Origin: Patescibacteria group bacterium
GTDB taxonomy: Bacteria; Patescibacteriota; Patescibacteriia; Patescibacteriales; UBA12075
Direction of reading: 5' to 3'
Assembly: GCA_018897195.1 (NCBI GenBank)
Contig: JAHILH010000005.1
Span: 745-64,744 of the forward strand
DNA: 64,000 nucleotides
This document shows positions 1,980 to 64,000 of this stretch, one piece after another (positions within the stretch are counted from its first letter, which is position 1; every line of letters starts with the position of its first letter). The translations under genes were made by a program, and so were the position numbers. Below the pieces are notes generated by a model. That model was not told the origin of the DNA, did not search any database, and worked only from the letters and a program-made list of their open reading frames with translations.

Positions 1980-3869
1980 GTGATACCAAAACAATTTATG
2001 ACAACATTTAAAGACCTGGGGCTTAATAAAGCCATCCAGCAAAGTCTTGACGACTTAGGATTTACAACTCCTTCGCCTATTCAAGCTGAATCTATCCCTT
2101 TTTTACTTAGCTCAACTGAGGACTTGATTGCCTTAGCGCAAACCGGAACCGGTAAGACGGCCGCTTTTAGTATTCCAATCATTCAACAACTTGAGAATAA
2201 TTCCAAGGACTTACAAGCCATCATCTTGTGTCCGACACGTGAATTGGCTTTACAAATCTCGAAAGACATCGTCGCTTTCACTAAGCATTCCAAAGAAGTA
2301 ACTTCATTGGCAGTTTATGGTGGCGAGAGCATTACTAACCAAATCAGCACCTTAAGACGGGGCGTGAATATTGTCGTGGGTACTCCCGGACGTGTGCACG
2401 ATTTGATTCGTCGCAAGGCTTTGAAATTACAAGATATTCGTTGGGTAGTTTTGGACGAAGCAGATGAGATGTTAGACATGGGCTTCAAGGATGACCTTGA
2501 TGCGGTCTTGGCGGAAACACCAGAAACAAAACAAACTCTATTATTCTCCGCAACAATGTCGAGCAGCGTGCGTAGTATTGCTAGCAAATACATGAGTAAG
2601 CCTCATGAGATTAGCATGGGTGAAAAAAATATCGGTGCTGATAACGTTACTCATGAATACTACATCGTGCAAGCGCGCGATCGCTATGAAGCTTTACGTC
2701 GTTTAGTTGATTCCCTACCGGATATTTATGGTATTCTTTTTTGTCGAACCAGACGTGAGACACAGGAAGTAGCGGACAAGTTGAAAGAAAATCATTACAA
2801 CGCTGAACCACTTCATGGTGAGATTACGCAAAATATGCGTACCCAGATCATGGACAGATTTAGAAATAGAAAAATTCAATTACTAGTAGCCACTGACGTG
2901 GCTGCGCGTGGCATTGACGTTAGTGATTTAACTCATGTTATCAACTACAACCTGCCTGATGCCAACGAGACATACGTTCACCGCAGTGGCCGAACTGGTC
3001 GTGCCCAAAAGAGTGGCACCTCAATCACAATTTTGCACCCAAAAGAAAGAAGTCGGATTATGGATATTCAAAGAAAAGTTGGTAAACCGTTTACGCAAAA
3101 ACAAGTGCCCCAAGGTGAAGATATTTGCAAGAGCCAATTATTAGGTTTTGTTGATAAAATCAAAGACGCGGATGTAAATAAAGAACAGATTGCACAATAC
3201 CTACCAGCGGTAAACGAAAAATTAGACGGACTAAGTCGTGAAGACTTGATTAATCATTTCATCTCATACGAATTAAGTCACTTTTTAAAAGACTACGAAG
3301 AGTCACGTGATTTGAATACTAACGCAACTAGCGGACCAGCCAAGGAAAGAATGGCCAGCGAAAACGTCGCTAGCTTCAAAATCAATTTGGGCAACCGTGA
3401 TGGTTTTGATATCAAAGGTTTGTTTGGCTTAATCAATAGCAAGCGCGAATTAAAAGGTTCTGAGATCGGCCGTGTCGATGTCCTACCTGGTCATTCCGTT
3501 TTTGGTATTGATAAAAAATTCCAAGATGCGGTCTTGCAAGCCTTGAACGGCTCAAGCTACCGTGGCAAAACTCTTGAAGTTACTCAAACAACTCAATCCA
3601 ACGAACCACGCCGAAAATCTTTTGGCGGTTCTAGAGGTAGCAGCTTTGGCGGATCACGTGGTGGTCGCAGTGAAGGCGGTCGTGGCGGCTTTAAGGGACG
3701 TAATGAAGGCAGAAGTGAAGGTGGAAGTGGTAGAAGTTTTGGCGGACGCAGTGAAGGTGGACGTGAAGGTGGCTACAAAAAACCCTTCGGTGGTGCTGCT
3801 AAAAAAGGAAAATCAGATGGTTCTGATGTTTTCAAATTTGGCTACACTAAGAAAACTAGAGTTAGTTAA
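1980..3869 (+). CDS. deaD: DEAD-box ATP-dependent RNA helicase (DeaD/CsdA-like) with RGG-rich C-terminal tail
   Basis: Q motif GFTTPSPIQ, AQTGTGKT, PTRELA, DEAD, SAT, HRSGRTGR. C-terminal GGSRG/GRSEGG repeats. Start is uncertain: GTG at 1980 or ATG at 1998. Confidence 0.9.
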   Translation: MIPKQFMTTFKDLGLNKAIQQSLDDLGFTTPSPIQAESIPFLLSSTEDLIALAQTGTGKTAAFSIPIIQQLENNSKDLQAIILCPTRELALQISKDIVAFTKHSKEVTSLAVYGGESITNQISTLRRGVNIVVGTPGRVHDLIRRKALKLQDIRWVVLDEADEMLDMGFKDDLDAVLAETPETKQTLLFSATMSSSVRSIASKYMSKPHEISMGEKNIGADNVTHEYYIVQARDRYEALRRLVDSLPDIYGILFCRTRRETQEVADKLKENHYNAEPLHGEITQNMRTQIMDRFRNRKIQLLVATDVAARGIDVSDLTHVINYNLPDANETYVHRSGRTGRAQKSGTSITILHPKERSRIMDIQRKVGKPFTQKQVPQGEDICKSQLLGFVDKIKDADVNKEQIAQYLPAVNEKLDGLSREDLINHFISYELSHFLKDYEESRDLNTNATSGPAKERMASENVASFKINLGNRDGFDIKGLFGLINSKRELKGSEIGRVDVLPGHSVFGIDKKFQDAVLQALNGSSYRGKTLEVTQTTQSNEPRRKSFGGSRGSSFGGSRGGRSEGGRGGFKGRNEGRSEGGSGRSFGGRSEGGREGGYKKPFGGAAKKGKSDGSDVFKFGYTKKTRVS

Positions 3870-5483: not shown

Positions 5484-5525
5484 CTCTCCCTCACCCCGAC
5501 CCTCTCCCGGCGGGGCGAGGGAGAA
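5484..5525 (+). repeat. GC-rich hairpin repeat, module A (REP-like)
   Basis: ctccctcaccccgaccctctcccggcggggcgagggag. Related copies at 8391, 37660 and 43023 (inverted). Lies just 3' of the dnaX stop. Confidence 0.8.
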
Positions 5526-5553: not shown

Positions 5554-7218
5554 CTATCCAACTACTTTCCCACCAAATGTCTTCAACAGACTATCCAACA
5601 TATCGCCACCACCATTGCCACCTTCAACTTTCTCCACTGTCTCGGTGACTTGATTCTCGCGAATAATTTGCTCAGCTACTTCATCGGTCGGATCATTGTC
5701 AAAGCTAACCTCATGTGTTTCACTGATGTTTAGGGCTTCATTGACTATGGACTCGATTACTATCGTAGAACCAAAAATTTGTTTTAGGGCATCACTAACT
5801 ACTGCCTTCACCGCCGGTTCTTCAATACGATCACGGTGGAATTTGAACTTAAAAAATAATTTCAAAACTCCATTCTCAACAGCACCGGGAACACAAGCAC
5901 GTAAGACAAAACTCAAAGAGTGATTGTTTTTTTGCACCACCGCTAAAACATCATTCCATTTGGACATCATTTGTTGACTGCTAAAATTAACATTATCGCC
6001 CTGAGCATTAACCACTTGTACTGAATTTGGTTTCCGGGTTGGCTCTTGCCCCGTTTTTAAACCACTACCTGTGCCACTATTATCCGTAAAAACCGGGGCT
6101 GACATAGTTGGCGTTGAACATAATTCAATAATCGCCACCTCCACTGGTAATTGGATTATAAAACTTTCCTTAATTTCATTGCCAGCTTTAGTGAATTTTT
6201 CGATTGCGTTGATAACGCGACCAACCTCAATTTCCTTCAAAATTTTACTAATTTTCACTTCCACACCTTCGCCTAGCTCCAAACCAAATTTCTCAGACAA
6301 TTTCAAATTAATTTTACCCAACATTATCTTACGCAACAACTCAATCAAGTCTTTTAAAAATCTTTTTAAATCTACACCTTCGTCCATCACTTTATTCACC
6401 AAGGCAATCGCTGAGGCGGCATCTTTCTTGACCAATAGTTCAATCAAAGCAATCGCTTCGCCAATGTCACTACGAGGAATAACTAGGTTTGCGTCTTCTT
6501 GGGAAATACGACGCTTGCCATCTTTTATGTTTTCAGCAATAGCGATGATTTGTCCAAAAACACTTTCCGCATCACGCATATGTCCTTCTGACTGACGAGC
6601 AATATCTTCAAGAACCAAGTTATCGATTTCGATCTTTTCACTATTGGCAATATATTGCAATTTCTTTACCACATCAGTAATGTTAATGCGCTTAAAATCA
6701 AAACGCTGGCAACGAGAGATAATGGTCGCCGGAATCTTGTGCACTTCAGTTGTTGCTAAGATAAAGATAACATTCTTGGGTGGTTCTTCAATAACTTTCA
6801 AAAGGGCGTTAAAAGCCGAAATGGACAGCATGTGAACCTCGTCGATGATAAAGACTTTAAATTTTGCGCCCGAAGTAGAGATTTTTGAGACCGCGATGAT
6901 GTTCTCGCGAACATTGTCAACGCCAGTGTGACTCGCTGCATCAATCTCAATTACATCCACGCTCTTGCCAAGAGTAATTGCCTCACAGCTATCGCAGGTA
7001 TTACAAGGCTCACTTTCGCCCTCCTTGCGATTGACACAGTTAATTGCCTTAGCAAAGACACGCGCAATTGTAGTCTTACCAATACCGCGTGGACCACAAA
7101 AAAGATAAGCATGGGCAATCTTGTCCTGCTCAATTTCATATTTTAAAGTAGTTTTGATGTGATTTTGACCGACTAATTCATCAAAATTCTGCGGTCGGTA
7201 TTCTCTGTATATTGTCAT
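5554..7218 (-). CDS. dnaX: DNA polymerase III subunit gamma/tau
   Basis: GPRGIGKTT Walker A, Zn module CNTCDSCEAI, DEVHML, SRCQRF. Confidence 0.92.
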   Translation of the reverse strand: MTIYREYRPQNFDELVGQNHIKTTLKYEIEQDKIAHAYLFCGPRGIGKTTIARVFAKAINCVNRKEGESEPCNTCDSCEAITLGKSVDVIEIDAASHTGVDNVRENIIAVSKISTSGAKFKVFIIDEVHMLSISAFNALLKVIEEPPKNVIFILATTEVHKIPATIISRCQRFDFKRINITDVVKKLQYIANSEKIEIDNLVLEDIARQSEGHMRDAESVFGQIIAIAENIKDGKRRISQEDANLVIPRSDIGEAIALIELLVKKDAASAIALVNKVMDEGVDLKRFLKDLIELLRKIMLGKINLKLSEKFGLELGEGVEVKISKILKEIEVGRVINAIEKFTKAGNEIKESFIIQLPVEVAIIELCSTPTMSAPVFTDNSGTGSGLKTGQEPTRKPNSVQVVNAQGDNVNFSSQQMMSKWNDVLAVVQKNNHSLSFVLRACVPGAVENGVLKLFFKFKFHRDRIEEPAVKAVVSDALKQIFGSTIVIESIVNEALNISETHEVSFDNDPTDEVAEQIIRENQVTETVEKVEGGNGGGDMLDSLLKTFGGKVVG

Positions 7219-7230
7219 ATAATTTAATAA

Positions 7231-7403
7231 CCGTCATCCCCGCGAAGGCGGGGATCCAGGCGCCACAGATAGTGGATACATTATTATAGAGACTAATCTA
7301 AATATAAATATTGATAATAAATAATGCTTTGTAAATTTTAATCCTCCATATACCAAAAATAATCTATGAGGTACCTGGATCCCCGCCTTCGCGGGGATGA
7401 CGG
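7231..7403. mobile_element. MITE-like element: 30-bp perfect terminal inverted repeats around a 113-bp AT-rich core
   Basis: 7231-7260 (ccgtcatccccgcgaaggcggggatccagg) is the exact reverse complement of 7374-7403. Each arm also contains its own hairpin (ATCCCCGC gaag GCGGGGAT). Confidence 0.6.
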
Positions 7404-7484
7404 GTGAAAAAAAATTGCTACATATTTAAATTGCCTAATAATTCTAATAACACAATTTAAAAATGTAGCAATTTAATAAAGATT

Positions 7485-8141
7485 TTAATTTCGCACAATA
7501 TTATCAACGGCTGCCCATTTACTATCACCCGTCTTTGGCACCAAGACTACCACTTCATCGCCAACAGTACCACGGAAATATGTCACACTAGCAGTTAAAA
7601 CTTTCAATTTAAGACCATCGGCGTTCACAATAAATGAGCCACCGCCACCTTGCTCCAAAGTACCAACCACGCGCTTGCGATCAATCGGACCGATTTGTTT
7701 GTAAACAAAAGTTCCGGTTGGTGTAATAGTTAATTTCAGAATATCACCTTCAACTAATTTTGACTTAGACGCATAATTTGCGGGAATACTGTATTGCTTA
7801 CCGTCTGGGCCAATCATATTTTCACCATCAAAGACACCTTCAACAATTTTTCCTTCACCGTCATGTTCATCCTCGCCACCCTTATTAAAGCTGTCGTCAT
7901 GAATCTGGCTGATTGCAATTTTGTCCAAATCGCCAATACCAGCAACACCGGAAATCAAATTTATCAATCTCTCGTTATTCTCTCTAGCATTTTCCAATAA
8001 TTTTTTAATCAAAACAAATTTTGACTTACTCAAAACAACCACATCCTTATCACTTTTAACATCATCGGAGTTATCACCTTCTTCAAGCTCCAAGTCGTCA
8101 ACATTGAATTCATCATCCATGTTCATGTTTGTTTCTGCCAT
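7485..8141 (-). CDS. hypothetical protein with acidic N-terminus and beta-rich C-terminal domain; last gene of the envelope operon
   Basis: 218-aa ORF with no recognisable motif. Same strand and tight spacing with the upstream genes. Confidence 0.55.
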   Translation of the reverse strand: MAETNMNMDDEFNVDDLELEEGDNSDDVKSDKDVVVLSKSKFVLIKKLLENARENNERLINLISGVAGIGDLDKIAISQIHDDSFNKGGEDEHDGEGKIVEGVFDGENMIGPDGKQYSIPANYASKSKLVEGDILKLTITPTGTFVYKQIGPIDRKRVVGTLEQGGGGSFIVNADGLKLKVLTASVTYFRGTVGDEVVVLVPKTGDSKWAAVDNIVRN

Positions 8142-8390: not shown

Positions 8391-8434
8391 GACTTCCCCT
8401 CACCCCAACCCTCTCCCGCCGGGGCGAGGGAGTC
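8391..8434 (+). repeat. GC-rich hairpin repeat, module A (REP-like)
   Basis: gacttcccctcaccccaaccctctcccgccggggcgagggagtc, immediately 3' of the ATPase gene stop at 8438. Confidence 0.8.
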
Positions 8435-8437
8435 TTA

Positions 8438-10945
8438 TTAAACACTGGTTCGACGACGAATTTCCGCCTCAATAATACTGCGATCTTGGCCAAATTTGAG
8501 ACGGCTCAAAGTCTTTATTTTTTGTGCCATTCCCTCTCGCTCAATACCAGCAATCGGCCAAGGGCAATGCATGGAAAAAGGACGACTGGCCGTATTATCA
8601 ATAAGAAGTTTTGTATAAACAGAATATTTTTCAACATTTAATAAATCATACTGACTAAAGACAGGACTAAATTCTTTTTCCAAAAATTCCGCATCTTCGG
8701 TGCCAATTCTAAAACTCACCATCGAACCGACGTTACCAAAAACGGCGTCCTTAATTGTCGTGTCACCCTTATTGACCATCTGTCCGATATATTGATGAGC
8801 GATGGTTAAATTCAAACTATATTTACGCGCCTCGGACAAAATAGAGCAAATTGAATCGGTGGTAAAATTTTGAAACTCGTCGATATATAAATAAAAATCC
8901 TTACGTTGTGCTTGCGGAATATCCGTACGCGACAAAGCATTCATTAAAATTTTACTAATTATGATCATGCCCAAAAGATAGGCATTCATCTCGCCAATGG
9001 CACCTTTGGACAAATCCACCAAAAGAATTTTTTGTTTATCCATAATATCGCGGAAATTGAACGAACTATTTTGTTGGCCGATAATCGGGCGCATCGTGTC
9101 ATTGGAAATAAACTGTGTCAACTTGGATGTAATATAGGGCACGACATTCGCCAGGGCCGCATCACCACCCGCCTTCTCGGCTTCTTGCTTCCAAAAATCA
9201 ACCACAGTTTGGTCCGCACAGCGCTCTAATTTCATTTTTCGAAAAGCTGGATTAGCCAACACTTTTGGCACTTCCATTAAAGTTGAACCGGATTCTGGAT
9301 CAGACATAATCAAGAGCAAGGCATTGCGCATATATTGTTCAAAGATTGGACCACCGGTCGCCTTTAAATCGTACAACTTATCAAAAATCTTAATCATCTC
9401 ATTAATTACAAAAGTTTTTTGCTCCGGATATTTCGGATCAAACTCAATCAAATTCAAAGCCATCGGCCGTTCAATGTCCGCCGGTCGGAATAAAATAACG
9501 TTTTCTGCTCTCTCGGGCGGAATGCGGGACAAGATATCGCTTACCAAGTCACCATGCGGATCCAAAACGCAAACGCCCTCACCATTAATAATATCTTGGA
9601 CAGCCATATTGGCAATGAATTGTGACTTACCACCACCAGACTTACCAACTACATACATATGACGACGACGATCGTCACGCTTGATGTGCACGTCTTTTTT
9701 AACACCACGATGCACATTATAACCAAGATAAACCCCTTCACTTGGCGTGTCTACCGGTGCCGGGGCATGACGAGCAGTTAACCATAAAATATTCGGCGTC
9801 TCGGTGTCTTTTAGGGGTAGATGAAAAAGACTAGCCATCTCTGTTGTATTTAACAAAAATGATTTACCTTCATTAAAACGACGATAGATAAAATCATGAA
9901 TAATGCGCTTCTTGTTGCCGGTATTAATACGGCTTGCAAAGCTGTTGCCATATTCATAAGAATTATATTGACTAAAAGCACTCGACAAATTTTCTAGATA
10001 GGTTTGCGCTCGTCCCTTATCCCGCGCTGCCACCACGATGCGTAAATTTACATCCATACCCGCACGTGCATTTTTTTCTTCAATACCTTTTAGAGCCTCT
10101 TGCTCCATTACAGTTAACATTTTTTGATTCTCGGACCTATTTGCCAAAGAAGGATCAGCCGAATGAAATACATCACCCAAAAAACCTAAAATTTTATGCA
10201 AGACCCCGGAGCTAAGTGCCTCTGATAAAGATTTTTTTTGATTAGCCTTACGAACCACCTCGCTCGCCTTGTAGTGCCAAGAATTTTTTGCACTACGAAT
10301 AGTATATTGGATCGCCAAACCCTCATCTTCATCCACCTTGGACATAACATTGATCAAAGAATTTGTTGAATCAGTATCTTGCTTTAAATAAGTACGCAAA
10401 GGTAAAACAAAATGTCTTGTTGTTTTTAAAGTGCCGGCCAAAATTTCAGACTTGTGATTAAAAATATTATAATCCTTCACCTCTTCCAATGACGCGTCCG
10501 GATAATGCGCATTGATTTGTTGTTCAATATAGCGCTCTGCTCCGCGTGGGGCCACGATATAGAAATGAATCTTTTTCTTATTCGCCACAATCTCAAAAGA
10601 ATAGCTATCATTACGACCATATAACCAAGCCTTAAAACCCCGCTCCGCCCGCAAGCCACCTATAGAAGAAAAGATTGTCTCACCTTTGGCAATTTCTTCG
10701 TGCAAGGATTGAACCCGATTTGTTTCATTGCCCTGGTTATTTCCTTGTTTGTCTTGAGGTAAACGGACTAAAAAAATAACGTAACGCTGAAAAGTCTTCT
10801 GCAAATATTTTTCCCGAATTATCAAGCGCGCAATATATAAAACCAAAAACAAAACAGCAAAAGCCGCCACATACCAAAACCAGCCACTCAAATCAATAAC
10901 ATAATCGTTGTTTATATTTTGTTGTAGTCCGTAATCCATAGACAA
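8438..10945 (-). CDS. membrane-anchored P-loop ATPase of the TraD/VirD4 (type IV coupling protein)-like family
   Basis: N-terminal TM helix, Walker A VVGKSGGGKS, Walker B YLYIDEFQNF, and AHQYIGQM near the C-terminus as in T4CPs. Confidence 0.75.
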   Translation of the reverse strand: MSMDYGLQQNINNDYVIDLSGWFWYVAAFAVLFLVLYIARLIIREKYLQKTFQRYVIFLVRLPQDKQGNNQGNETNRVQSLHEEIAKGETIFSSIGGLRAERGFKAWLYGRNDSYSFEIVANKKKIHFYIVAPRGAERYIEQQINAHYPDASLEEVKDYNIFNHKSEILAGTLKTTRHFVLPLRTYLKQDTDSTNSLINVMSKVDEDEGLAIQYTIRSAKNSWHYKASEVVRKANQKKSLSEALSSGVLHKILGFLGDVFHSADPSLANRSENQKMLTVMEQEALKGIEEKNARAGMDVNLRIVVAARDKGRAQTYLENLSSAFSQYNSYEYGNSFASRINTGNKKRIIHDFIYRRFNEGKSFLLNTTEMASLFHLPLKDTETPNILWLTARHAPAPVDTPSEGVYLGYNVHRGVKKDVHIKRDDRRRHMYVVGKSGGGKSQFIANMAVQDIINGEGVCVLDPHGDLVSDILSRIPPERAENVILFRPADIERPMALNLIEFDPKYPEQKTFVINEMIKIFDKLYDLKATGGPIFEQYMRNALLLIMSDPESGSTLMEVPKVLANPAFRKMKLERCADQTVVDFWKQEAEKAGGDAALANVVPYITSKLTQFISNDTMRPIIGQQNSSFNFRDIMDKQKILLVDLSKGAIGEMNAYLLGMIIISKILMNALSRTDIPQAQRKDFYLYIDEFQNFTTDSICSILSEARKYSLNLTIAHQYIGQMVNKGDTTIKDAVFGNVGSMVSFRIGTEDAEFLEKEFSPVFSQYDLLNVEKYSVYTKLLIDNTASRPFSMHCPWPIAGIEREGMAQKIKTLSRLKFGQDRSIIEAEIRRRTSV

Positions 10946-17456: not shown

Positions 17457-17726
17457 ATGAAACAGTATGTGACTCTCAATGTTCGCGGAAAACGTATATT
17501 AAATATACACGGAGACGTGAAATTGCGAGCGGTAGAAGATTTCTCCATGTTTTGTGGAGAAATCGCAACCATGACAAACGGCGAAAAAGAGGTAATCGGC
17601 ACTGGAGAGGGACATTCCGATTTTTCTGGCCTTGAAGTTGTACTTGAACCGAGTGGTGAGCACAAATTAATAAGCTGGCAAAATCTCAATGAGACACGGA
17701 TGGATATTTTTGGACAACCCAATTAG
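17457..17726 (+). CDS. hypothetical 89-aa protein
   Basis: AAGGAG lies 6 nt upstream of the ATG at 17457 (ORF track starts at 17427). Contains VVLEPSGEHKLIS, resembling VIVEPSGGHLIES in the 16411 protein. Confidence 0.5.
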   Translation: MKQYVTLNVRGKRILNIHGDVKLRAVEDFSMFCGEIATMTNGEKEVIGTGEGHSDFSGLEVVLEPSGEHKLISWQNLNETRMDIFGQPN

Positions 17727-21617: not shown

Positions 21618-24491
21618 TTATTTACCGCAGCATTTTTTATATTTCTTCCCTGATCCACAAGGACATAAATCATTGCGACCAACTTTGTTACCATCTTCAT
21701 CTTTTACCTTTTCATGAATCAAGTCAACTGTTTCGCGATGACCGGCACTGTCATCTTTTTTATATTCTGCAAAACTAGCTGAGTTATCGCTCATAGTTTT
21801 CTCGGGAGCGCTGAATTGCTTCGCCTGTTCAAGCAAACTTGGCGCTTTAATTTCTTGCGCTTGACCGCCGTGCATCATGCCAATCTTATAAATACTATAC
21901 ACCACTTCCTTATCAATCAAATTATTAAGTTGGTTATAAAGACCGAAGGCTTCTTTTTTATATTCAATCAAAGGATCACGTTGACCGTAACCACGTAGGC
22001 CGATGCCTTGGCGCACGCTCGCCACTGCTTCCAAATGCTCAATCCACATCATGTCAATCGCGCGAATCAAGATTGATTTCTCGATATCACTCCAATCAAC
22101 GCCCAAATCTTTGAGTCTCATTTGCAATTCATCATAAACATTCTTGGCCATTCCGTATAAATGCTCAATAATCTCTGTACGCGCTTTCGCTCGGTCGAAC
22201 TTATGATCACCTTCCAAAAATTTCTTTTGTAAATCATCTTTTAATCGTTCTCCAATCGGAAAAATTGTGGTCATCGTCTGATAAATCTCGGCCACATTCC
22301 AATCCTTGATTTCATCAGCTGCCGCATGAAAAGCCACCACCTGCTCAATTTCATTCTCCACCATTGTTAAAATAATATCACTCAAAGTCTTCTTTTCGCC
22401 CTCAACTTCCGTAGAGGATTCACTTAATTTATTTATTTCGGACAAAGTCAAAATCTCCAAACGCTTACGATAAATCGCTTCTCGGTGTTTATTAATCACA
22501 TCATCATAATCCACTAAATGCTTACGAATATCAAAGTTATTGCCTTCGACTTTTTTCTGAGCTGATTCAATAGATCTAGAAATTAGCTTATTCTCAATCG
22601 GCATATCTTCCGGCAATTTTAAACTAGTCATAATCGACTTCATTCGATCACCACCAAATATACGCATCAAGTCATCATCCATCGACACAAAGAATTGTGA
22701 TGAACCAGGATCACCTTGACGACCGGCACGACCACGAAGTTGATTATCAATACGACGTGACTCATGACGCTCAGTACCAATCACGTGCAAACCACCCAAT
22801 TCTTTCACCTTGCGGCTACTTTCCTGCCACTCGGCATATTCAGGACTGTCCTTTTCTGGTGCCACACCGCCAAGCATAATATCAACACCACGACCAGCCA
22901 TATTAGTGGCAATCGTAATGGTACCCAGCTTACCGGCATCAGCAATAAAGCGCGCTTCCTTATCATGATTCTTGGCATTCAAAACTTGTGGCCGTAAGCC
23001 CTCGCGCTCCATAAAATTTGCCAAGAGCTCATTCTTTGCAATTGAAATCGTACCCACTAAAACCGGTTGCCCTTTTTTATGCAATTCCTTTACCGCTTGT
23101 GTCACCGCCGCAAACTTACCCATCTCCGTCTTGTAAATTAAATCATTTTGGTCAATTCTCACATTCGGCTTATTCGTTGGAATTGACACCACCTCCAAAT
23201 TATAGATCTTATGAAACTCTTCAGCTTCTGTCGCCGCCGTACCAGTCATACCGGCTAATTTTTCGTATAATCTAAAATAATTTTGAAAGGTCACTGTTGC
23301 CAAAGTTTGCGATTCACGTTGAATCTTCACACTCTCTTTAGCTTCAATCGCTTGGTGCAAGCCCTCACTATAACGACGGCCATGCATCAATCGGCCGGTG
23401 AATTCGTCAACAATAACAACCTCACCATCTTTAACGATATAATCACGTTCGTTCAGGAATAATGCATGTGCTTTCAAAGCTTGTTCAATATGATGCACTT
23501 CACGAATGCCACCAATGGTATAAATATTCTCCACGCCCAACCATTTTTCCATTTTAGTAATACCAGCCTCAGACAATGTCGCCGCTTTCATTTTTTCATC
23601 AACGTTATAGTCTTCATTTTCTATTAATTGTTTTACCAGTTCAGAAAATTTATAATATTTATCAGTTGACTCTTCTGCTGGTGCAGAAATAATCAAAGGA
23701 GTACGCGCCTCATCAATCAAAATAGAATCAATTTCATCGACAATGGTATAATAAAAACCACGTTGCACCATCTGGTCCAAGCTCGATACCATATTATCTT
23801 TCAAGTAATCAAATCCGAATTCATTATTTGTTCCATAGACCACATCGCAGCGATACGCGTCTTGACGTGGCACCCGCTTGAAGTGTTTTAACTTCTCTTC
23901 CGTCTCAGCCTCATTAATATATTCCGGGTCATACTTCAAGGCACTCTCATGAATGATCACACCCGTTGTCATGCCCAAGGCTTCATAAATACGCGCGGTC
24001 AAACCAGCACCAACTTTAGACAAATAATCATTCACGGTAATCAACTGCACACTCTGTCCAGTCAAGGCATTCAAATACAAAGGCAAAGTCGCTACCAAGG
24101 TTTTACCCTCACCAGTCTTCATCTCTGCGATCTGCCCACGGTGCAAAATAATACCACCAACCATCTGCACATCATAATGCCTCTGCCCCACTGTTCGTCG
24201 CGCTGCCTCACGCACAGCTGCAAACGCCTCCGGCAACAATGCATTTAGCTTTTCTTGTAATTCCAGCTTAGACTTTTCATCCTTATTCTTCTCACTGGCT
24301 GCCTGCAATTGATAATTAGTAATTGGTATAATACCTAGTTCCGCGCGTAATTTTGCGGTTATACCCTGAAGCTCTTCAACACTCATAGCCTCATATTTCG
24401 CCTCTAAAGCATTAATTTGATCAACAATCGGTTGCAAGCTCTTAATTATTTTTAAATTTGGGTCTCCAAAAATTTTCGTAATAATAGACAT
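21618..24491 (-). CDS. secA: preprotein translocase ATPase SecA
   Basis: MKTGEGKT Walker A, DEVDSILIDEARTPLIIS, and a C-terminal zinc motif CPCGSGKKYKKCCG. Confidence 0.95.
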   Translation of the reverse strand: MSIITKIFGDPNLKIIKSLQPIVDQINALEAKYEAMSVEELQGITAKLRAELGIIPITNYQLQAASEKNKDEKSKLELQEKLNALLPEAFAAVREAARRTVGQRHYDVQMVGGIILHRGQIAEMKTGEGKTLVATLPLYLNALTGQSVQLITVNDYLSKVGAGLTARIYEALGMTTGVIIHESALKYDPEYINEAETEEKLKHFKRVPRQDAYRCDVVYGTNNEFGFDYLKDNMVSSLDQMVQRGFYYTIVDEIDSILIDEARTPLIISAPAEESTDKYYKFSELVKQLIENEDYNVDEKMKAATLSEAGITKMEKWLGVENIYTIGGIREVHHIEQALKAHALFLNERDYIVKDGEVVIVDEFTGRLMHGRRYSEGLHQAIEAKESVKIQRESQTLATVTFQNYFRLYEKLAGMTGTAATEAEEFHKIYNLEVVSIPTNKPNVRIDQNDLIYKTEMGKFAAVTQAVKELHKKGQPVLVGTISIAKNELLANFMEREGLRPQVLNAKNHDKEARFIADAGKLGTITIATNMAGRGVDIMLGGVAPEKDSPEYAEWQESSRKVKELGGLHVIGTERHESRRIDNQLRGRAGRQGDPGSSQFFVSMDDDLMRIFGGDRMKSIMTSLKLPEDMPIENKLISRSIESAQKKVEGNNFDIRKHLVDYDDVINKHREAIYRKRLEILTLSEINKLSESSTEVEGEKKTLSDIILTMVENEIEQVVAFHAAADEIKDWNVAEIYQTMTTIFPIGERLKDDLQKKFLEGDHKFDRAKARTEIIEHLYGMAKNVYDELQMRLKDLGVDWSDIEKSILIRAIDMMWIEHLEAVASVRQGIGLRGYGQRDPLIEYKKEAFGLYNQLNNLIDKEVVYSIYKIGMMHGGQAQEIKAPSLLEQAKQFSAPEKTMSDNSASFAEYKKDDSAGHRETVDLIHEKVKDEDGNKVGRNDLCPCGSGKKYKKCCGK

Positions 24492-35399: not shown

Positions 35400-37553
35400 A
35401 TGCTTACTCTTGATACCAAAATTGAAAACCTTAGCAAGGTTGGCGCAACTACCGCCAAAAGACTTAAAAATATTGGCCTGGAAACAATCCAAGATCTTTT
35501 GTTTTACTTCCCATTTCGTTATGACGATTTTAGTGAGGTCGTTACTATTAAAGATTTGCAACCGAATACGGTCGTTAATATCGTTGGTGAAATTGATTTG
35601 ATTCAAAATAAAAAAAGTCTACGCACCAAGATGAATATTACTGAAGCCTTGGTTAATGACGGGACAGATACGATTAAGGTAATTTGGTTCAATCAACCTT
35701 TTATTGCCAAGACTTTGCATAATGGCGACCGCGTGTCATTGTCTGGCAAAGTAGACGGTGACTTAAATAATCTCACACTCAAATCCCCGAGCTATGAGAA
35801 AATAAATACTCAGCAAACTACGAACACCCAAGGCCTAGTGCCTAACTACCACCTCACCGCCAATATTACCCAGAAACAAATACGCTATTTAATCAAACAA
35901 GCCTTGCCGGCGGTTTATCTTGTTCCCGAGTGGATTCCAATTAATATTATCAAGCGAAACAATTTTATCAGCATTGATGATGCCTTAAAAAATTTACATT
36001 TCCCTAAAACTGAAAAAATGTTAGCAGACGCAAAACGTCGTTTGAGTTTTGATGAATTATTTTTAACCCAATTACAATCACAACTTCTTAAAAAAGAAAT
36101 TACTTTTAATAATGCGCCAGTCATTGAATTTAAAGAGGGGGAAACTAAGGAATTTGTAAAATCACTACCCTTTGAACTAACTGATGCGCAGAAAAAATCC
36201 GCTTGGCAGATCCTTATGGATATGCAAAAAGATAAACCAATGTCACGCTTGCTTGAAGGTGATGTTGGTAGCGGCAAGACAATCACCGCTGTCGTGGCAA
36301 TGTTCAATGTCGCTTTGAATAAATACCAGTCGCTCATTATGGTGCCGACTGAAATTTTGGCTGGACAACATTATAATTCTATTTGCAAAACTTTGAGTAA
36401 TTCCAAGCTGCGCATTGCTCTGTTTACGCGCACCGAGAAGAAAATTAATACAGTCCTGGGTAAGTTGTCTAAGAATAAATTATTGGAAATAATCAAAAAC
36501 GGCGAAGCAGATATTATCATCGGTACCCACGCCTTGATTCAAGAAGATTTCAAGTGTCACAACTTAGGTCTAGCGATTATCGACGAACAACATCGTTTCG
36601 GCGTTGAACAACGCAAAAAATTACTCGCCAAAGCAAACAATAATGCTCCCTCTCCTGGCCAGGAGAGCACCTGTGCTGTGCCTGGCATAAAGGTCGGGGT
36701 GAGGTTGTCACCACAAGCACAATCGCTGTCTCCACATCTACTCTCAATGACAGCAACCCCAATTCCCCGCTCGCTAGCATTGGTTCTATACGGTGAACTC
36801 GATATTTCCATTATCAATGAACTACCAAAAAACCGTAAAAAAATTATCACAAGTCTCGTCTCAGAACAAAATCGCACTGATGCTTATAAATTTATTTACA
36901 AACAAGTCAACGACGGTCGCCAGGTTTTTGTCGTCTGCCCCCTCATTGATCCATCGGATAAAATGGGTGTTAAATCAGTGACCGAAGAATTTAAAAAATT
37001 AAACGAAGTGATATTTCCCGACCTCGAAATCGCGCTCTTGCATGGCAAACTAAAATCTGAAGAAAAAGAGCAAATCATGCAAGATTTTGTCGCCAACAAA
37101 ACCAAAATTCTCGTCTCCACCTCCGTCATTGAAGTCGGTGTCGACGTGCCCAATGCCACCATTATGATGATTGAGGGCGCCGACCGCTTCGGCCTTGCCC
37201 AACTACACCAATTCCGCGGCCGTGTCGGTCGAGGTGCGCACCAATCATATTGCTTCCTATTCAGCGACAGCGACTCGCCAAAGACCAAAGAAAGATTACA
37301 AGCTATGGAGAAGCACCATGACGGTTTTACACTCGCCAAAATCGATCTCAAACAACGCGGTCCTGGTGAAGTATACGGCACTAATCAAAAAGGTTTTCCA
37401 GAATTTAAGATTGCCAATTTATTTGATCACGAATTAATAGAGATTGCCCAGAATGAGGCAGCTAAACTTATAGATGAAAATCCAGAATTAAAAGATTTGC
37501 CAGACTTAAAGGAAAAAATTGAGGACTGGAAAAATAAAATTCATTTGGAATAA
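35400..37553 (+). CDS. recG: ATP-dependent DNA helicase RecG, carrying an in-frame repeat-derived insertion
   Basis: Wedge/OB N-terminus, GDVGSGKT, IIDEQHRFGV, MTATPIPRSL, QLHQFRGRVGRG. About 29 extra residues lie between motif II and TATPIPR. Confidence 0.92.
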   Translation: MLTLDTKIENLSKVGATTAKRLKNIGLETIQDLLFYFPFRYDDFSEVVTIKDLQPNTVVNIVGEIDLIQNKKSLRTKMNITEALVNDGTDTIKVIWFNQPFIAKTLHNGDRVSLSGKVDGDLNNLTLKSPSYEKINTQQTTNTQGLVPNYHLTANITQKQIRYLIKQALPAVYLVPEWIPINIIKRNNFISIDDALKNLHFPKTEKMLADAKRRLSFDELFLTQLQSQLLKKEITFNNAPVIEFKEGETKEFVKSLPFELTDAQKKSAWQILMDMQKDKPMSRLLEGDVGSGKTITAVVAMFNVALNKYQSLIMVPTEILAGQHYNSICKTLSNSKLRIALFTRTEKKINTVLGKLSKNKLLEIIKNGEADIIIGTHALIQEDFKCHNLGLAIIDEQHRFGVEQRKKLLAKANNNAPSPGQESTCAVPGIKVGVRLSPQAQSLSPHLLSMTATPIPRSLALVLYGELDISIINELPKNRKKIITSLVSEQNRTDAYKFIYKQVNDGRQVFVVCPLIDPSDKMGVKSVTEEFKKLNEVIFPDLEIALLHGKLKSEEKEQIMQDFVANKTKILVSTSVIEVGVDVPNATIMMIEGADRFGLAQLHQFRGRVGRGAHQSYCFLFSDSDSPKTKERLQAMEKHHDGFTLAKIDLKQRGPGEVYGTNQKGFPEFKIANLFDHELIEIAQNEAAKLIDENPELKDLPDLKEKIEDWKNKIHLE
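36645..36707 (+). repeat. GC-rich hairpin repeat, module B-like, inside the recG coding sequence
   Basis: gctccctctcctggccaggagag...ggtcggggtgaggttg. Compare the intergenic copy gttccctctccttgccaggagagggtcagggtgaggtag at 37574. Confidence 0.7.
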
Positions 37554-37573
37554 ATAACAAAGAGACCATAACA

Positions 37574-37612
37574 GTTCCCTCTCCTTGCCAGGAGAGGGTC
37601 AGGGTGAGGTAG
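37574..37612 (+). repeat. GC-rich hairpin repeat, module B
   Basis: CCCTCTCC ttgcca GGAGAGGG hairpin plus TCAGGGTGAGGT. An inverted copy is at 43078-43116. Confidence 0.8.
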
Positions 37613-37659
37613 TTTTCTGTGTATAAAACAAAATTATTACATCATACCATCTTCCAACA

Positions 37660-37697
37660 CCCCCTCACCCCGACCCTCTCCCGCTGGGGCGATGGAG
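37660..37697 (+). repeat. GC-rich hairpin repeat, module A (degenerate copy)
   Basis: ccccctcaccccgaccctctcccgctggggcgatggag. Confidence 0.7.
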
Positions 37698-37772
37698 ACA
37701 TAGCACAAACTTCTTGGAATAATAAAAAGAGCAGAATTAAATCTGCTCTTTTTTAAAATCTCAGTTATTATT

Positions 37773-38915
37773 CTATTCTTTCCCCAACTTCTCCTGCAAC
37801 AACTGATACGCTTTTCGCGCTACATCACGATATTGAAAATTATCCATCGTGAATTGACGAGCATTGCGGCCCATTTCTTCGCGCAATTTATCGTCAGTCA
37901 ATAACATTAAAGTATATTTTGCCAACTCATCGATATTAGCACGATAAGCGAAGACTTTTGGCTCATCAAACTTAATCTTGTGATCAACATCAAAACCCAT
38001 GTGTTCCCAGGCCCATTCTTCGGTCAATGTGACTGTCTCGCCGACCTCAGCCAAGAAACCGGTTTTGCCATGAACAACTGTGTCCACTGGTCCACCAACA
38101 TTGATGGAAATAACTGGCTTACCACATGCTTCCGCTTCCATCTGAATCATACCGAAACCTTCCAATCTGGACGGTGCTGCGTAGATATCGCAGGCGGACA
38201 ATAAATATGGAATGAAATCGTGAGAGAAGGCACCGGAAAGATAAACAATTTTATCTCGATCTAGGCCTAATTCCTCGATTAAGGCTTCTTCTTCTTGGCA
38301 ATGCACCTCAGAAGATTCACTCTCCCAGTGTTTAAGCACATATTTCCAGTCCTTAAATTCTTTATCAATTTTAACTAAAGCTCTGAACATTTCTTGTGCG
38401 CCTTTACTTGTTACATCGCCACCGATTGTCAAAATCATCTTCTCGTGTGGTTGTACGCCCAACATCTCACGGATCTTGGCCACTTTTGGATCACCGGCAA
38501 AAGGCTTCACTTCTTCTGGATCAAAACCAATTGGCAAAGTGACAAAATTCTTTGTATCCACGCCGTCACGTTTATAAGTATCAGTCACCCAATTACTAGT
38601 CGTAAAAACCAAAGGCAAATCACTGATAGCCTTGTGATAATTTGCCACCCAGCCATTCGCCACTAACCACGGCACAGGAATTGATCCGTTATTTTGTGGT
38701 GAAAAAATAATATCCTTGGCATAAGTCCAACAACCAATACCGATAGAAACATCAGGTTGATAAGCGTTGAACATCCATTGCTTTTGGAAGCTTGGTGAAT
38801 AATGAGAAGGCATTACATCAACACCATTCTCTTTCATTCCTCTGTATAATAAATTACCCTGGATGCTAAGTCCATCCGGTTCTGGCGGATAAGCATGTAA
38901 AACTGCAACTTTCAT
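37773..38915 (-). CDS. GT-B glycosyltransferase (family 1/4-like)
   Basis: C-terminal EGFGMIQMEAEACGKPVI motif; 380 aa. Confidence 0.8.
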   Translation of the reverse strand: MKVAVLHAYPPEPDGLSIQGNLLYRGMKENGVDVMPSHYSPSFQKQWMFNAYQPDVSIGIGCWTYAKDIIFSPQNNGSIPVPWLVANGWVANYHKAISDLPLVFTTSNWVTDTYKRDGVDTKNFVTLPIGFDPEEVKPFAGDPKVAKIREMLGVQPHEKMILTIGGDVTSKGAQEMFRALVKIDKEFKDWKYVLKHWESESSEVHCQEEEALIEELGLDRDKIVYLSGAFSHDFIPYLLSACDIYAAPSRLEGFGMIQMEAEACGKPVISINVGGPVDTVVHGKTGFLAEVGETVTLTEEWAWEHMGFDVDHKIKFDEPKVFAYRANIDELAKYTLMLLTDDKLREEMGRNARQFTMDNFQYRDVARKAYQLLQEKLGKE

Positions 38916-43011: not shown

Positions 43012-43022
43012 ACAATTTTATT

Positions 43023-43062
43023 GACTCCCTCGCCCCGCCGGGAGAGGGTTGGGGTGAGGGAG
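43023..43062 (-). repeat. GC-rich hairpin repeat, module A (inverted orientation)
   Basis: gactccctcgccccgccgggagagggttggggtgagggag is the reverse complement of the 8391 copy, apart from one or two bases. Confidence 0.8.
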
Positions 43063-43077
43063 CCGTCACCGAAAATC

Positions 43078-43116
43078 TACCTCACCCTGCCCCTCTCCTA
43101 TCCAGGAGAGGGAACT
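43078..43116 (-). repeat. GC-rich hairpin repeat, module B (inverted orientation)
   Basis: ctacctcaccctgcccctctcctatccaggagagggaac, the reverse complement of the 37574 copy with a few changes. Confidence 0.8.
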
Positions 43117-43137
43117 ATATTGCTAATTTTTAATTAT

Positions 43138-52299: not shown

Positions 52300-52767
52300 T
52301 TAATGATTACTTTTTAATTCTAACAAGCGCTGATACTGCCACTCTCGCTCCTTTATAACCCTTGCCAGAACATCGCCTTTTTTAACATTATCTCTAATCG
52401 CTGTCGCTGCATAAATCGCCGCCACAATTGCATGACCAGGCGCATGCACCGTCGCCACCGCCTGTCCAGCCGCCCGCGCCGCGGAACGTGCCGCACTATA
52501 TTCCTCAGCATCGCGCGCCGCTGCATGTGACGCCAGAGACGCCCCACGAATAACAGCCATCTTAAATACACCCGTCTTCACCCACAAACGCCCCACCGCA
52601 ATCGCCAATCGCGGACGTTTGTCGCCTGTATATTTTTTCTCAAAATAAGGCAACGCCCGCTTCGCGCAATCACACGCCCAAATCACCAAGGTTTTCTTAT
52701 CCGTTTTCCAGGCCAATGCAGCGATTTGTTCATCTAATTCAGTTTTGACCATTATTGGTTTTTTCAT
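52300..52767 (-). CDS. Imm5-like putative immunity protein (Ala-rich helical repeats)
   Basis: LVIWACDCAKRALPYFE...PRLAIAVGRLW...AARDAEEYSAARSAARAAGQAVATVHAPGHA. This matches the family as I remember it, with no search run. The gene is locally GC-rich. Confidence 0.45.
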   Translation of the reverse strand: MKKPIMVKTELDEQIAALAWKTDKKTLVIWACDCAKRALPYFEKKYTGDKRPRLAIAVGRLWVKTGVFKMAVIRGASLASHAAARDAEEYSAARSAARAAGQAVATVHAPGHAIVAAIYAATAIRDNVKKGDVLARVIKEREWQYQRLLELKSNH

Positions 52768-62767: not shown

Positions 62768-62895
62768 GTTTTTTACATTTTCTGTTATTTTAATCCATTT
62801 CTTTACCCTTGACTGATTATCTGAATAATATATAATATAAATATCAATACCTGTCACGCCTCTTAACAATGCGAAACCGACAGGTTTTTTTGCGT

Positions 62896-64000
62896 TTAGA
62901 ACGGCTTGCCAATTCCCAGCTCATCGCAAAACTCCGCAATCTTATTTTGCAAACCAATCTCATTAGCATTCAATTTCCTCAGGCTCTCTGCCACCGCTTC
63001 AATATCAATTACCTCCTCCTCTTCAAAAGTATCCACATAGCGTGGAATATTCAAATTGTATTCATTCTCACGAATCTCCTCCATTGTTGCCCGATGGGAG
63101 TATTTCTCGATCTCTTTGCGCTCTTTGTAGGTCACAAAAATCTTCGCAATGTTATCATCAGTCAATTTGTTTTGATTCTTTTCTTTTACAAAATCTTTAG
63201 ACGCATCAATAAACAGAATACCCTCGTCATCACGACGGCATTTCTTAAACACCAACACAGTAGCAGGGATTGAAGTGCCATAAAAAAGATTAGCGGGCAA
63301 ACCAATTACGGCATCGAGGTAGTTTTGTTTTTCAATGATATGCTTGCGAATATGCCCCTCAGCTCCAGAGCGAAACAAGGCGCCATGTGGTAACACAACA
63401 GCCATAGTGCCATTATCCGCCAAGTGGTAAAGCATGTGCGTCACAAAAGCGTAATCAGCCGCACTTTTTGGCGCTAGTCGTCCGTATTGTGAGAATCTGT
63501 CGTCATGAGCTAGTTGCGGATCAGTGTCGCCCTTCCATTGAGCCGAGAACGGTGGATTGGCTACTATTGCCTCAGCTTTAAGATCGGCGTGCATATCCTC
63601 TTTGAGCGTATCACCGTGGCGAATATCGAAATGGTCGAAGTGAACGCCATGCAAGATCATGTTCATGCGAGCCAAATTGTAAGTCGTTGGGTTTTGTTCT
63701 TGACCGAAATAACTAACCACATCAGTGTAGTCACCGATACGAAGCAAGAGTGAGCCAGAGCCACAAGTCGGATCATAGACAGACTTAATTCGTTTCTTGT
63801 CTTGAGACACAATCTGAGCCAACAGCCGAGAGATTTGGGCAGGGGTATAAAACTCACCGCCTTTCTTGCCAGCACCAGCAGCGAATTCGCCGATCAGGTA
63901 TTCATAGGCATCACCAAGTAAGTCACTCTTAGTGTCTTCCAGCTTGAAATCTATACCACTGAGCAAAGACAACACCTCAACTACCACTTCATTCTTTTGA
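62896..64000 (-). CDS. hsdM: type I restriction-modification methyltransferase subunit (partial; N-terminus beyond window)
   Basis: DPTCGSGSLL AdoMet motif and the catalytic motif IVANPPFS. The reading frame stays open to position 64000. Confidence 0.92.
   Translation of the reverse strand, partial: QKNEVVVEVLSLLSGIDFKLEDTKSDLLGDAYEYLIGEFAAGAGKKGGEFYTPAQISRLLAQIVSQDKKRIKSVYDPTCGSGSLLLRIGDYTDVVSYFGQEQNPTTYNLARMNMILHGVHFDHFDIRHGDTLKEDMHADLKAEAIVANPPFSAQWKGDTDPQLAHDDRFSQYGRLAPKSAADYAFVTHMLYHLADNGTMAVVLPHGALFRSGAEGHIRKHIIEKQNYLDAVIGLPANLFYGTSIPATVLVFKKCRRDDEGILFIDASKDFVKEKNQNKLTDDNIAKIFVTYKERKEIEKYSHRATMEEIRENEYNLNIPRYVDTFEEEEVIDIEAVAESLRKLNANEIGLQNKIAEFCDELGIGKPF

Follow-up and report, generated by a model that had tools for sequence, protein, structure and literature searches.

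An in-frame insertion in recG

The window analysed here, 64,000 nt of contig JAHILH010000005.1 from a Patescibacteria group bacterium (assembly GCA_018897195.1), encodes a RecG helicase into which a short GC-rich palindromic repeat appears to have been inserted in frame. The recG open reading frame (ORF) occupies positions 35400-37553 of the forward strand and is intact. Its 717-residue product contains all of the helicase motifs, is assigned to the Pfam families RecG_wedge, DEAD, Helicase_C and RecG_dom3_C, and aligns in sequence to T. maritima RecG (1GM5) with E=1.6e-151. The invariant helicase residues, including D395, E396, Q397 and H398, are all retained. The 120 best RecG homologues all belong to the candidate phyla radiation (CPR), and their source annotations put the genome of the window among the Parcubacteria/Patescibacteria of that group. 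Two of them, P0002 on locus L001 and P0003 on locus L003, are close enough for detailed comparison. The ratio of nonsynonymous to synonymous substitution rates (dN/dS) is 0.024 against L001 (dS 1.9) and 0.058 against L003 (dS 2.2). The RecG protein of the window is thus under strong purifying selection (dN/dS 0.02-0.06).

The insertion lies between motif II (DEQH, residues 395-398), whose codons align at 36582-36593 (+), and motif III (TAT, residues 451-453), whose codons align at 36750-36758 (+), as the original prediction had placed it. The stretch from motif II to motif III reads QRKKLLAKANNNAPSPGQESTCAVPGIKVGVRLSPQAQSLSPHLLSM, and the protein across the insertion reads DEQHRFGVEQRKKLLAKANNNAPSPGQESTCAVPGIKVGVRLSPQAQSLSPHLLSMTATPIPR, exactly as first described. 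In the closest orthologue, P0002, which is 92.9% identical at the amino acid level outside the gap, the site is empty and reads AKVGENTSLSPHLL. Alignment with this orthologue delimits an insert of 25 codons (residues 417-441; 75 nt) at 36648-36722 (+). Since the nearest orthologue lacks these codons altogether, it does not carry an unrelated segment of the same length at this position. Among the 120 CPR homologues, the usual distance from DEQH to IPR is 35-38 residues, compared with 63 in the window, an excess of about 26; against 1GM5, query residues 413-447 face a five-residue linker (515-519), an excess of about 30. The initial estimate of some 29 extra residues therefore holds for distant RecG proteins, but against the nearest relative the number is 25.

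The insert is conspicuous in composition as well, and the earlier description of a GC-rich segment with a perfect hairpin stands. The GC content is 0.64 across 36646-36704, compared with 0.40 in the remainder of recG, in a genome of low GC (38%), and CTCTCCTGGCCAGGAGAG forms a perfect 18-nt palindrome at 36650-36667. Four parts can be distinguished. The first two blocks of the repeat, CTCCCTCTCC-TGGCC-AGGAGAG, lie at 36646-36667 (+), include the palindrome and differ by one loop base from a type-B intergenic copy at 37576-37596. A 24-nt spacer, CACCTGTGCTGTGCCTGGCATAAA, follows at 36668-36691 (+) and splits the module; it is the hypervariable centre in comparison with L003, and a search for further copies within the window found none. 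Block 3 with a short linker, GGTCGGGGTGAGG, is placed by sequence match at 36692-36704 (+) and corresponds to the third, G/T-rich strand of a triplex motif. The last part, a 21-nt tail at 36705-36725 (+), TTGTCACCACAAGCACAATCG (LSPQAQS), is outside the repeat consensus but common to L003, and it is an imperfect tandem duplicate (13/21 positions, counted by eye) of the target codons at 36726-36746 (LSPHLLS).

The 25-residue insert contains no stop codon and no Cys/Ser/Thr...His-Asn junction pattern. An intein or a translational bypass was rejected for the lack of a stop and of junction residues, and because the insert is too short. A promoter and terminator scan gave no signal at the insert. 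Repeats are a classic cause of metagenome misassembly, and the repeat could have been mis-joined into recG in an assembly or chimera artefact. However, an identical 717-residue protein is encoded on at least seven contigs among the matches listed, from ENA/NCBI and Logan assemblies, and the insertion is therefore no misassembly. A homologous insert occurs in another sample and lineage (L003), and the frame is preserved. An artefact is accordingly so improbable that it can be set aside.

A dispersed repeat and its identity

Six clean copies of a GC-rich module of about 36-38 nt are present in the window, and all six lie between ORFs. All align to a type A module of the form CTCCCTCGCCCC-gcc-GGGAGAGGG-tY-GGGGTGAGGG; the type B module reads TCCCTCTCC-ttgcc-AGGAGAGGG-tc-aGGGTGAGG. 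Two canonical copies stand alone: a type 'A mm' copy (CTCCCTCGCCCCGCCGGGAGAGGGTCGGGGTGAGGGAG) at 5486-5523 (-), downstream of a dnaX-like ORF (5554..7218), and a type A copy at 8396-8434 (-), 3 nt past the stop codon of ORF 8438..10945. The others form two inverted A/B pairs. In the first (37576-37698), a type B copy at 37576-37610 (+), 22 nt past the recG stop codon, is the left half and a type A copy at 37661-37698 (-) the right half; in the second (43025-43114), a type A copy at 43025-43062 (+) is followed by a type B copy at 43080-43114 (-). The copies first reported at 37574-37612 and, inverted, at 43078-43116 are thus real. Folded as single strands, the two inverted pairs are far more stable than shuffled sequences (z=-3.6 and -4.9), and DNA folds of the intergenic copies give z=-3.5 to -4.9.

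To judge by sequence, the RecG insert derives from this dispersed GC-rich hairpin repeat, and the similarity goes beyond chance. An nhmmer profile built from the six intergenic copies alone matches 36639-36707 (E=1.1e-7, 27.6 bits), so that the nucleotide similarity to the intergenic copies is significant in a proper alignment. The sequence TCCCTCTCCTNGCCAGGAGAG is found exactly at 36647 and 37576, and with up to two mismatches it has five matches in the window, compared with none in 100 shuffles; GGTNGGGGTGAGG, with up to one mismatch, has six matches, compared with 0.09 expected. The RecG segment shares a 20/21-nt match with the neighbouring intergenic copy at 37576, and its block 3 recurs unchanged in the copies at 5489 and 37663. 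The original prediction had called the insert the same module as the intergenic one; homology is upheld, but the copy in recG is a split, degenerate derivative, with 24 nt between blocks 2 and 3.

It could be argued that the loop merely expanded in this lineage, by slippage or duplication, and came to resemble the repeat by chance. Loop length does vary across CPR RecG proteins, and the 3' tail of the insert resembles a local tandem duplication. These points are outweighed by the profile match, by the 20/21-nt identity, in which the blocks keep the expected order and orientation, by the GC content of the insert relative to its gene and by intact copies of the repeat at the same site in other lineages (below), and such an expansion is very unlikely.

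The repeat itself, whose identity was missed at first, is recognisable from its sequence as the BoxC/PIT/TMECO G/C-rich intrastrand-triplex motif. The E. coli 'BoxC' repeat has been renamed twice, first as PIT, for potential intrastrand triplex, and afterwards as 'TMECO' (Holder et al. 2015, PMC4666352); the triplex motif is abbreviated here as TM. In Table 1 of that paper, the E. coli K-12 type 'A mm' is given as CCCTCGCCCCTTTGGGGAGAGGGTTAGGGTGAGGGG and type B as CCCTCTCCCTGTGGGAGAGGGCCGGGGTGAGGGC. Broken into blocks, these correspond to CCCTCGCCCC-loop-GGGAGAGGG-TT-GGGGTGAGGG and CCCTCTCC-loop-GGAGAGGG-TC-GGGTGAGG, both nearly the same as the window copies. There the E. coli motif is described as 'always located intergenically', with inverted pairs always joining A with B, and the six window copies are likewise intergenic, single or in A+B inverted pairs. 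The paper also reports that no link to a transposon was found and that loci bearing the motif are unusually unstable; even for E. coli, triplex or G-quadruplex formation was shown only in vitro, with single strands. The G-rich half is a textbook G-quadruplex motif, and the element has also been described as a switch between G-quadruplex, hairpin and duplex (bioRxiv 10.1101/032615). Relative to the E. coli motif as described there, the RecG segment has its three blocks in the proper sequence, with blocks 1 and 3 retained and block 2 kept for the most part but truncated, and where the second loop should measure 2-3 nt it has a spacer of 24 nt. It also differs in being a family copy placed in frame within a coding sequence, and its host is a low-GC CPR bacterium, from a group without mention in the available portion of the Holder et al. 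survey (PMC4666352).

Across 185,579 species genomes, a scan for GGAGAGGGTNGGGGTGAGG recovered the 19-mer core and the full three-block module in more than 120 contigs. The core matches listed come from Proteobacteria, Bacteroidota, Planctomycetota, Chloroflexota, Cyanobacteria, Myxococcota, Omnitrophota and others, and nearly every one has the complementary C-block and a 4-6-nt loop directly before it. A hidden Markov model built from 128 non-CPR copies recovers the intergenic copies of the window with E~1e-8. Because of these multi-phylum matches and the cross-phylum model, the TM family can be regarded as known and spread across bacteria. First described in the 1990s, BoxC/PIT/TM elements are conserved across phyla; we know of no function or means of spread for them. 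Rfam contains no curated family for the module, either at the gathering threshold over the whole window or in an E-value search of 36500-37800, and the sub-threshold matches (miRNA families and whalefall-1, 18 bits) were put down to chance.

Five of the TM copies lie just past a stop codon (5486-5523, 8396-8434, 37576-37610, 37661-37698 and 43080-43114), often at a distance of 3-30 nt, and in this small sample all of them (5/5), read along the coding strand of the gene upstream, begin with the C-block. This orientation could reflect either a hairpin role at gene 3' ends or an orientation bias at insertion.

Small palindromic repeats in frame within conserved genes are well established, as in the Rickettsia palindromic element (RPE) and the BRE, RUP and ERIC-type repeats (reviewed in PMC3184786). 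The parallel with RPEs drawn in the original prediction holds as an analogy. As RPEs are summarised in that review (citing Ogata et al. 2000), both are short palindromic selfish repeats found intergenically and in frame in conserved genes; the added peptide segment is compatible with function in RPEs, and may be so here. In the present case intergenic copies are accompanied by an in-frame copy in a conserved ORF, and orthologues without the copy exist. On the same summary, the sequences are unrelated, the lengths differ (about 36-60 nt, compared with 100-150 nt), the host phylum is another, and the TM family is spread over bacterial phyla whereas RPEs are specific to one genus. Membership in the RPE family proper was rejected on the basis of length, CPR host and BoxC/TM sequence, and the resemblance is functional only.

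REP/REPIN elements and the ORF-fused BRE, RUP and ERIC/YPAL repeats (PMC3184786; PMC3733652) are also GC-rich hairpins that often form inverted doublets near gene ends, with some at times fused to or inside ORFs. REPs have no counterpart to the third, non-palindromic block of the TM module. In the profile alignment the window copies show no GTAG/CGTC tag at their ends, and no association with a RAYT transposase was noticed, although no dedicated REP/RAYT test was made. Literature searches on CPR bacteria and intragenic palindromic repeats turned up no description of BoxC/TM elements in coding sequences, in CPR or recurring at the same protein loops. Both the repeat family and this kind of in-frame insertion are known already, and the RecG case adds a new member.

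A probable decayed passenger and its proposed history

The structural criterion for the motif (ITxF), as given by Holder et al. (PMC4666352), calls for three blocks (pyrimidine, complementary purine and mirror G/T) separated by loops of 1-6 nt, and the G-quadruplex criterion applied to TM elements calls for four G-tracts. In the RecG copy, blocks 2 and 3 are separated by 24 nt (36668-36691) plus 2 nt, which is longer than the loop limit, and block 2 is truncated to AGGAGAG, which leaves one run of at least three G. As a single strand, 36640-36735 folds no more stably than shuffled sequence does (z=-0.57). What survives is a hairpin of 7-9 bp and block 3. The copy in recG thus has the appearance of a degenerate relic whose triplex and G-quadruplex architecture is lost, a capacity removed because 24 unrelated nucleotides split the hairpin from block 3. 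One of the three forward TM frames contains a TGA, and recG stays open because the copy sits in a TGA-free orientation and frame.

In an AlphaFold2 model of the window RecG, made with a 79-sequence alignment, the mean predicted local distance difference test (pLDDT) score is 83.2 and the best structural match is RecG 1gm5_A (Foldseek, E=2.9e-49, template modelling score 0.67). Residues 414-432, between the helix 402-412 and the motif III strand 446-451, are the sole long stretch below 50, and ten-residue means across 411-440 are 43, 34 and 47. The insert is thus predicted to be a disordered loop. For the insert only, comparison of the window with L003 gives dN 0.37 and dS 0.38 (dN/dS ~1): the peptide evolves neutrally, without protein-level constraint. 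These data fit a tolerated passenger loop rather than a domesticated one, with no sign of a gained function. The earlier suggestion that the repeat had been domesticated is thus at odds with the pLDDT of 34-47, the equal dN and dS and the fold.

It is therefore probable that a BoxC/TM copy entered recG, decayed and is now carried as a tolerated passenger loop. A copy would have entered the recG gene of a CPR lineage at the loop between motif II (DEQH) and motif III (TAT). Because its orientation and frame are free of TGA, the gene would have kept its reading frame, and the protein would have gained a translated loop of some 25 residues. The copy would then have decayed to a 7-9 bp hairpin and block 3 with 24 unrelated nucleotides between them, and the peptide would form a disordered surface loop that RecG tolerates. 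The insert is polymorphic among close relatives, and short-patch homologous recombination may have carried it from one RecG allele to another or deleted it from one of them.

The polymorphism is apparent from L003, which represents another lineage from an unrelated metagenome. Its RecG, P0003, is 82.7% identical to that of the window and is the outgroup to the window and L001 by whole-gene identity. It carries a homologous insert of 69 nt with ends nearly the same as those of the window (GCTCCCTCTCCT.GCCAG at the 5' end; GGTCGGGGTGAGGTTGTC.CCACAAGCA at the 3' end). Each of the two inserts exceeds the length of an intact B-type module by 24 nt, and the central 29 nt of the L003 insert are very unlike those of the window. 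A metagenome scan for the 3' junction, GGGGTGAGGTTGTCNCCNCARGC, returned the L003 contig again and one chance match in a high-GC organism, and no new alleles.

Several points weigh against the history proposed above. The window shares the insert with the more distant L003 but not with the nearer L001, so that a loss, a transfer or two gains are needed. In a comparison chosen post hoc, both ends of the insert and some 30 nt to its left are far more alike in the window and L003 than neutral descent permits, which could also mean constraint at the nucleotide level, and hence some function. No target-site duplication or clean junction between empty and filled sites is definable for the RecG insert, a source for the central 24-29 nt of the inserts was not found, and to our knowledge TM elements have no transposase. 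Finally, translation of the insert is presumed from the open frame, and surface exposure of the loop is taken from its low pLDDT and loop position rather than from coordinates.

In the patch surrounding the insert, the window sides with L003 (AKAN...) and not with L001, whose AKVGEN is like the CPR consensus KSGDKNT. Because this local patch is incongruent with the gene tree, short-patch recombination is suggested: lineages may have exchanged the insert together with roughly 30 nt on its left side, or L001 may have been converted back by an insert-free allele. With no target-site duplication or clean junction and no transposase known for TM elements, the route of entry is something we can only infer. 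One speculation is microhomology between TM block 2 and GGAGAG, the putative ancestral Gly-Asp/Glu codons that are seen in L001.

Turnover outside recG seems to be rapid as well. The L001 contig (20.6 kb) has no TM copy, and in its spacers at 12071-12231 and 17489-17585, which are syntenic with 37554-37772 and 43012-43137 of the window, AT-rich heptamers of the CAAAATT/AATTTTG type replace the TM pairs. Because L001 lacks TM elements and has heptamer repeats in the syntenic spacers, the intergenic repeat families appear to be swapped wholesale, and to turn over fast, between genomes with RecG proteins that are about 93% identical. Comparison of filled and empty intergenic sites between the window and L001 did not yield TM boundaries or target-site duplications, as these spacers are too diverged.

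The similarity of the insert ends is one argument that the module was domesticated after all, with the peptide, or a hairpin in recG mRNA or DNA, gaining a function, be it in regulation or interaction as a loop of RecG, in translational pausing or as a structure on which RecG acts. Blocks 1 and 3 and the tail are nearly identical at synonymous sites in the window and L003, despite dS~2.2 elsewhere. Across codon columns 403-438 with the centre excluded, a range chosen post hoc, 21/24 conserved residues have identical codons in the two, compared with 52% gene-wide. About one third of the 120 CPR RecG proteins bear inserts in the same loop, and RecG works on branched or unusual DNA. However, the centre of the insert is unconserved, dN and dS are about equal inside it, disorder is predicted for the loop, the nearest relative has no such insert, and the triplex and G-quadruplex architecture is destroyed, with a fold no better than shuffles. 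Inserts at the same loop elsewhere are unrelated in sequence, orientation and frame, and SecA and a DNA glycosylase bear the same kinds of insert (below). A gain of function therefore seems improbable.

Recurrent insertions in CPR proteins

A census of insertions of at least six residues in the 120 RecG homologues found that they cluster at three loops: 'site 136', after SPxYEKI (31 sequences); a site near residue 356 (38 sequences); and 'site 412', the motif II-III linker (39 sequences, with a further 10 at a neighbouring gap run, nine of which carry PF13366). At site 412, the L124 RecG has an intact forward TM (TCTCCCCTCTCCTTGACTAGGAGAGGGGCCGGGGGTGAGG), L127 has a reverse TM (CCTCACCCCAGCCCTCTCCTTGCCAAGGAGAGGG) together with a second reverse TM at site 136, and L125 and L126 have degenerate reverse copies. 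Other inserts at this site are unrelated hairpins (ATRCLARHRVA) and heptamer repeats (NRKSKIENRKS).

The nine PF13366 carriers (P0017, P0024, P0028, P0029, P0056, P0069, P0078, P0082 and P0089) have a whole GxxExxY PD-(D/E)XK domain of about 115 residues in frame between motifs II and III (E 1e-28 to 1e-29), flanked by repeated SPHxSA... and RTNAD/GLTRT-like peptides. Such a domain in the RecG core could be selfish, spreading as an in-frame element, or else a domain that RecG has genuinely gained. Site 136 has TM-like and other GC-hairpin peptides, such as YIPPSPLEGEGSGVRS, LPHPIPPLIRGGNKREGY and YLTPTLSLVRRGGE, and site 356 has AT-rich palindrome peptides (NYELGIMN...IHNSLFI); the window RecG is in the basal state at both.

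Similar inserts are found in other proteins. The methylpurine-DNA glycosylase (MPG) genes at L124:12804-13436(-) and L126:13119-13733(-) have in-frame TM-like hairpins near residue 27, that of L124 being CCCCACCCCTAACCCCTCCCCTAATTAGGGGAGGGGAATTAAAGGGGAGGGG, translated TPPLTPPLIRGGELKGRG, and a second repeat-derived insert reads NQKSKILSAQAGKNQKF in L124 and GHCEEDSLLADVAIP in L126. CPR SecA proteins (homologues P0121-P0240 of the window SecA) have repeat-derived in-frame inserts in several loops, for example TPPQPSPSQGEGE in P0238, KSPQPPFVKGG... in P0202, P0213 and P0220, GLLRRSAPRND in P0166 and NRKSKIENR in P0138. The window SecA itself, at 21621-24491(-), has no TM-type insert. Because such inserts occur in RecG, MPG and SecA loops, the phenomenon is not specific to RecG.

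The concentration at site 412 raises the question of whether the recG motif II-III linker is targeted at the DNA level, by a nuclease that cuts next to the highly conserved PHLLSMTATPIPR coding DNA followed by repair that copies in repeats, or by homing with co-conversion. At least 10 insert types occur at exactly one position in the 120 homologues, including TM elements in both orientations, hairpins, heptamers and the GxxExxY domain; imperfect tandem duplications of the SPH target codons adjoin inserts; and the patch of about 110 nt around the insert that is incongruent with the gene tree resembles a co-conversion tract. Yet two other RecG loops and several SecA and MPG loops have the same kind of insert, for which random insertion and a loop filter suffice. 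No nuclease site or target-site duplication was found, and as only intact ORFs were retrieved, there is ascertainment bias. Targeting is thus unlikely, though less so than domestication. Frequent insertion of short repeats, with survival only in permissive loops and open frames, is the simplest reading.

A broader proposal can be made tentatively. It may be that loops of essential CPR proteins (three in RecG, and others in SecA and MPG) are repeatedly colonised in frame by several short-repeat families, a phenomenon that we have not found described, although the odds are rather against it. Just as tentatively, the colonists would include BoxC/TM elements in both orientations, GC hairpins, heptamers, AT palindromes and the GxxExxY domain, with quick turnover and perhaps spread by short-patch recombination or a homing-like process. 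If so, repeat colonisation could account for a significant share of the insertions that are specific to single CPR lineages, and it would offer a natural setting in which to study BoxC/TM movement. The RecG case would then point to a possible proteome-wide phenomenon in CPR. In-frame copies that are present or absent among relatives and recurrent in both orientations are dated, polarised insertion events, which could reveal the target preference, turnover and mechanism of TM elements. They also suggest that conserved CPR proteins vary in length partly because of passenger sequence derived from repeats, and not through adaptive gain of domains, a point of consequence for annotation, alignment and phylogenomics. 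In RecG, they mark the linker between motifs II and III as a highly permissive loop.

Other repeats and RNA features occur in the window. A second GC-rich hairpin family, CCGTCATCCCCGCGAAGGCGGGGATCCAGG, forms an inverted pair at 7228-7275 and 7368-7406, between ORFs 5554..7218 and 7485..8141 (37 nt, 92% complementary, 99 nt between). In ORF 1980..3869 (+), three tandem repeats of about 45-48 nt, 61-72% identical to the reference copy, lie at 3634-3772, in the 3' part of a DEAD-box/DbpA-type helicase gene. The GC-richest stretch of the window, up to 0.86 per 36 nt, is at 52429-52550 in ORF 52300..52767 (-), which encodes an alanine-rich protein of 155 residues (…ASHAAARDAEEYSAARSAARAAGQAVATVHAPGHA…); it is not a TM copy. 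At 62850-62885 (+), adjoining ORF 62896..63987 (-), there is an Rfam match at gathering level to abiF RNA (RF03085, 45.3 bits, E 4e-5).

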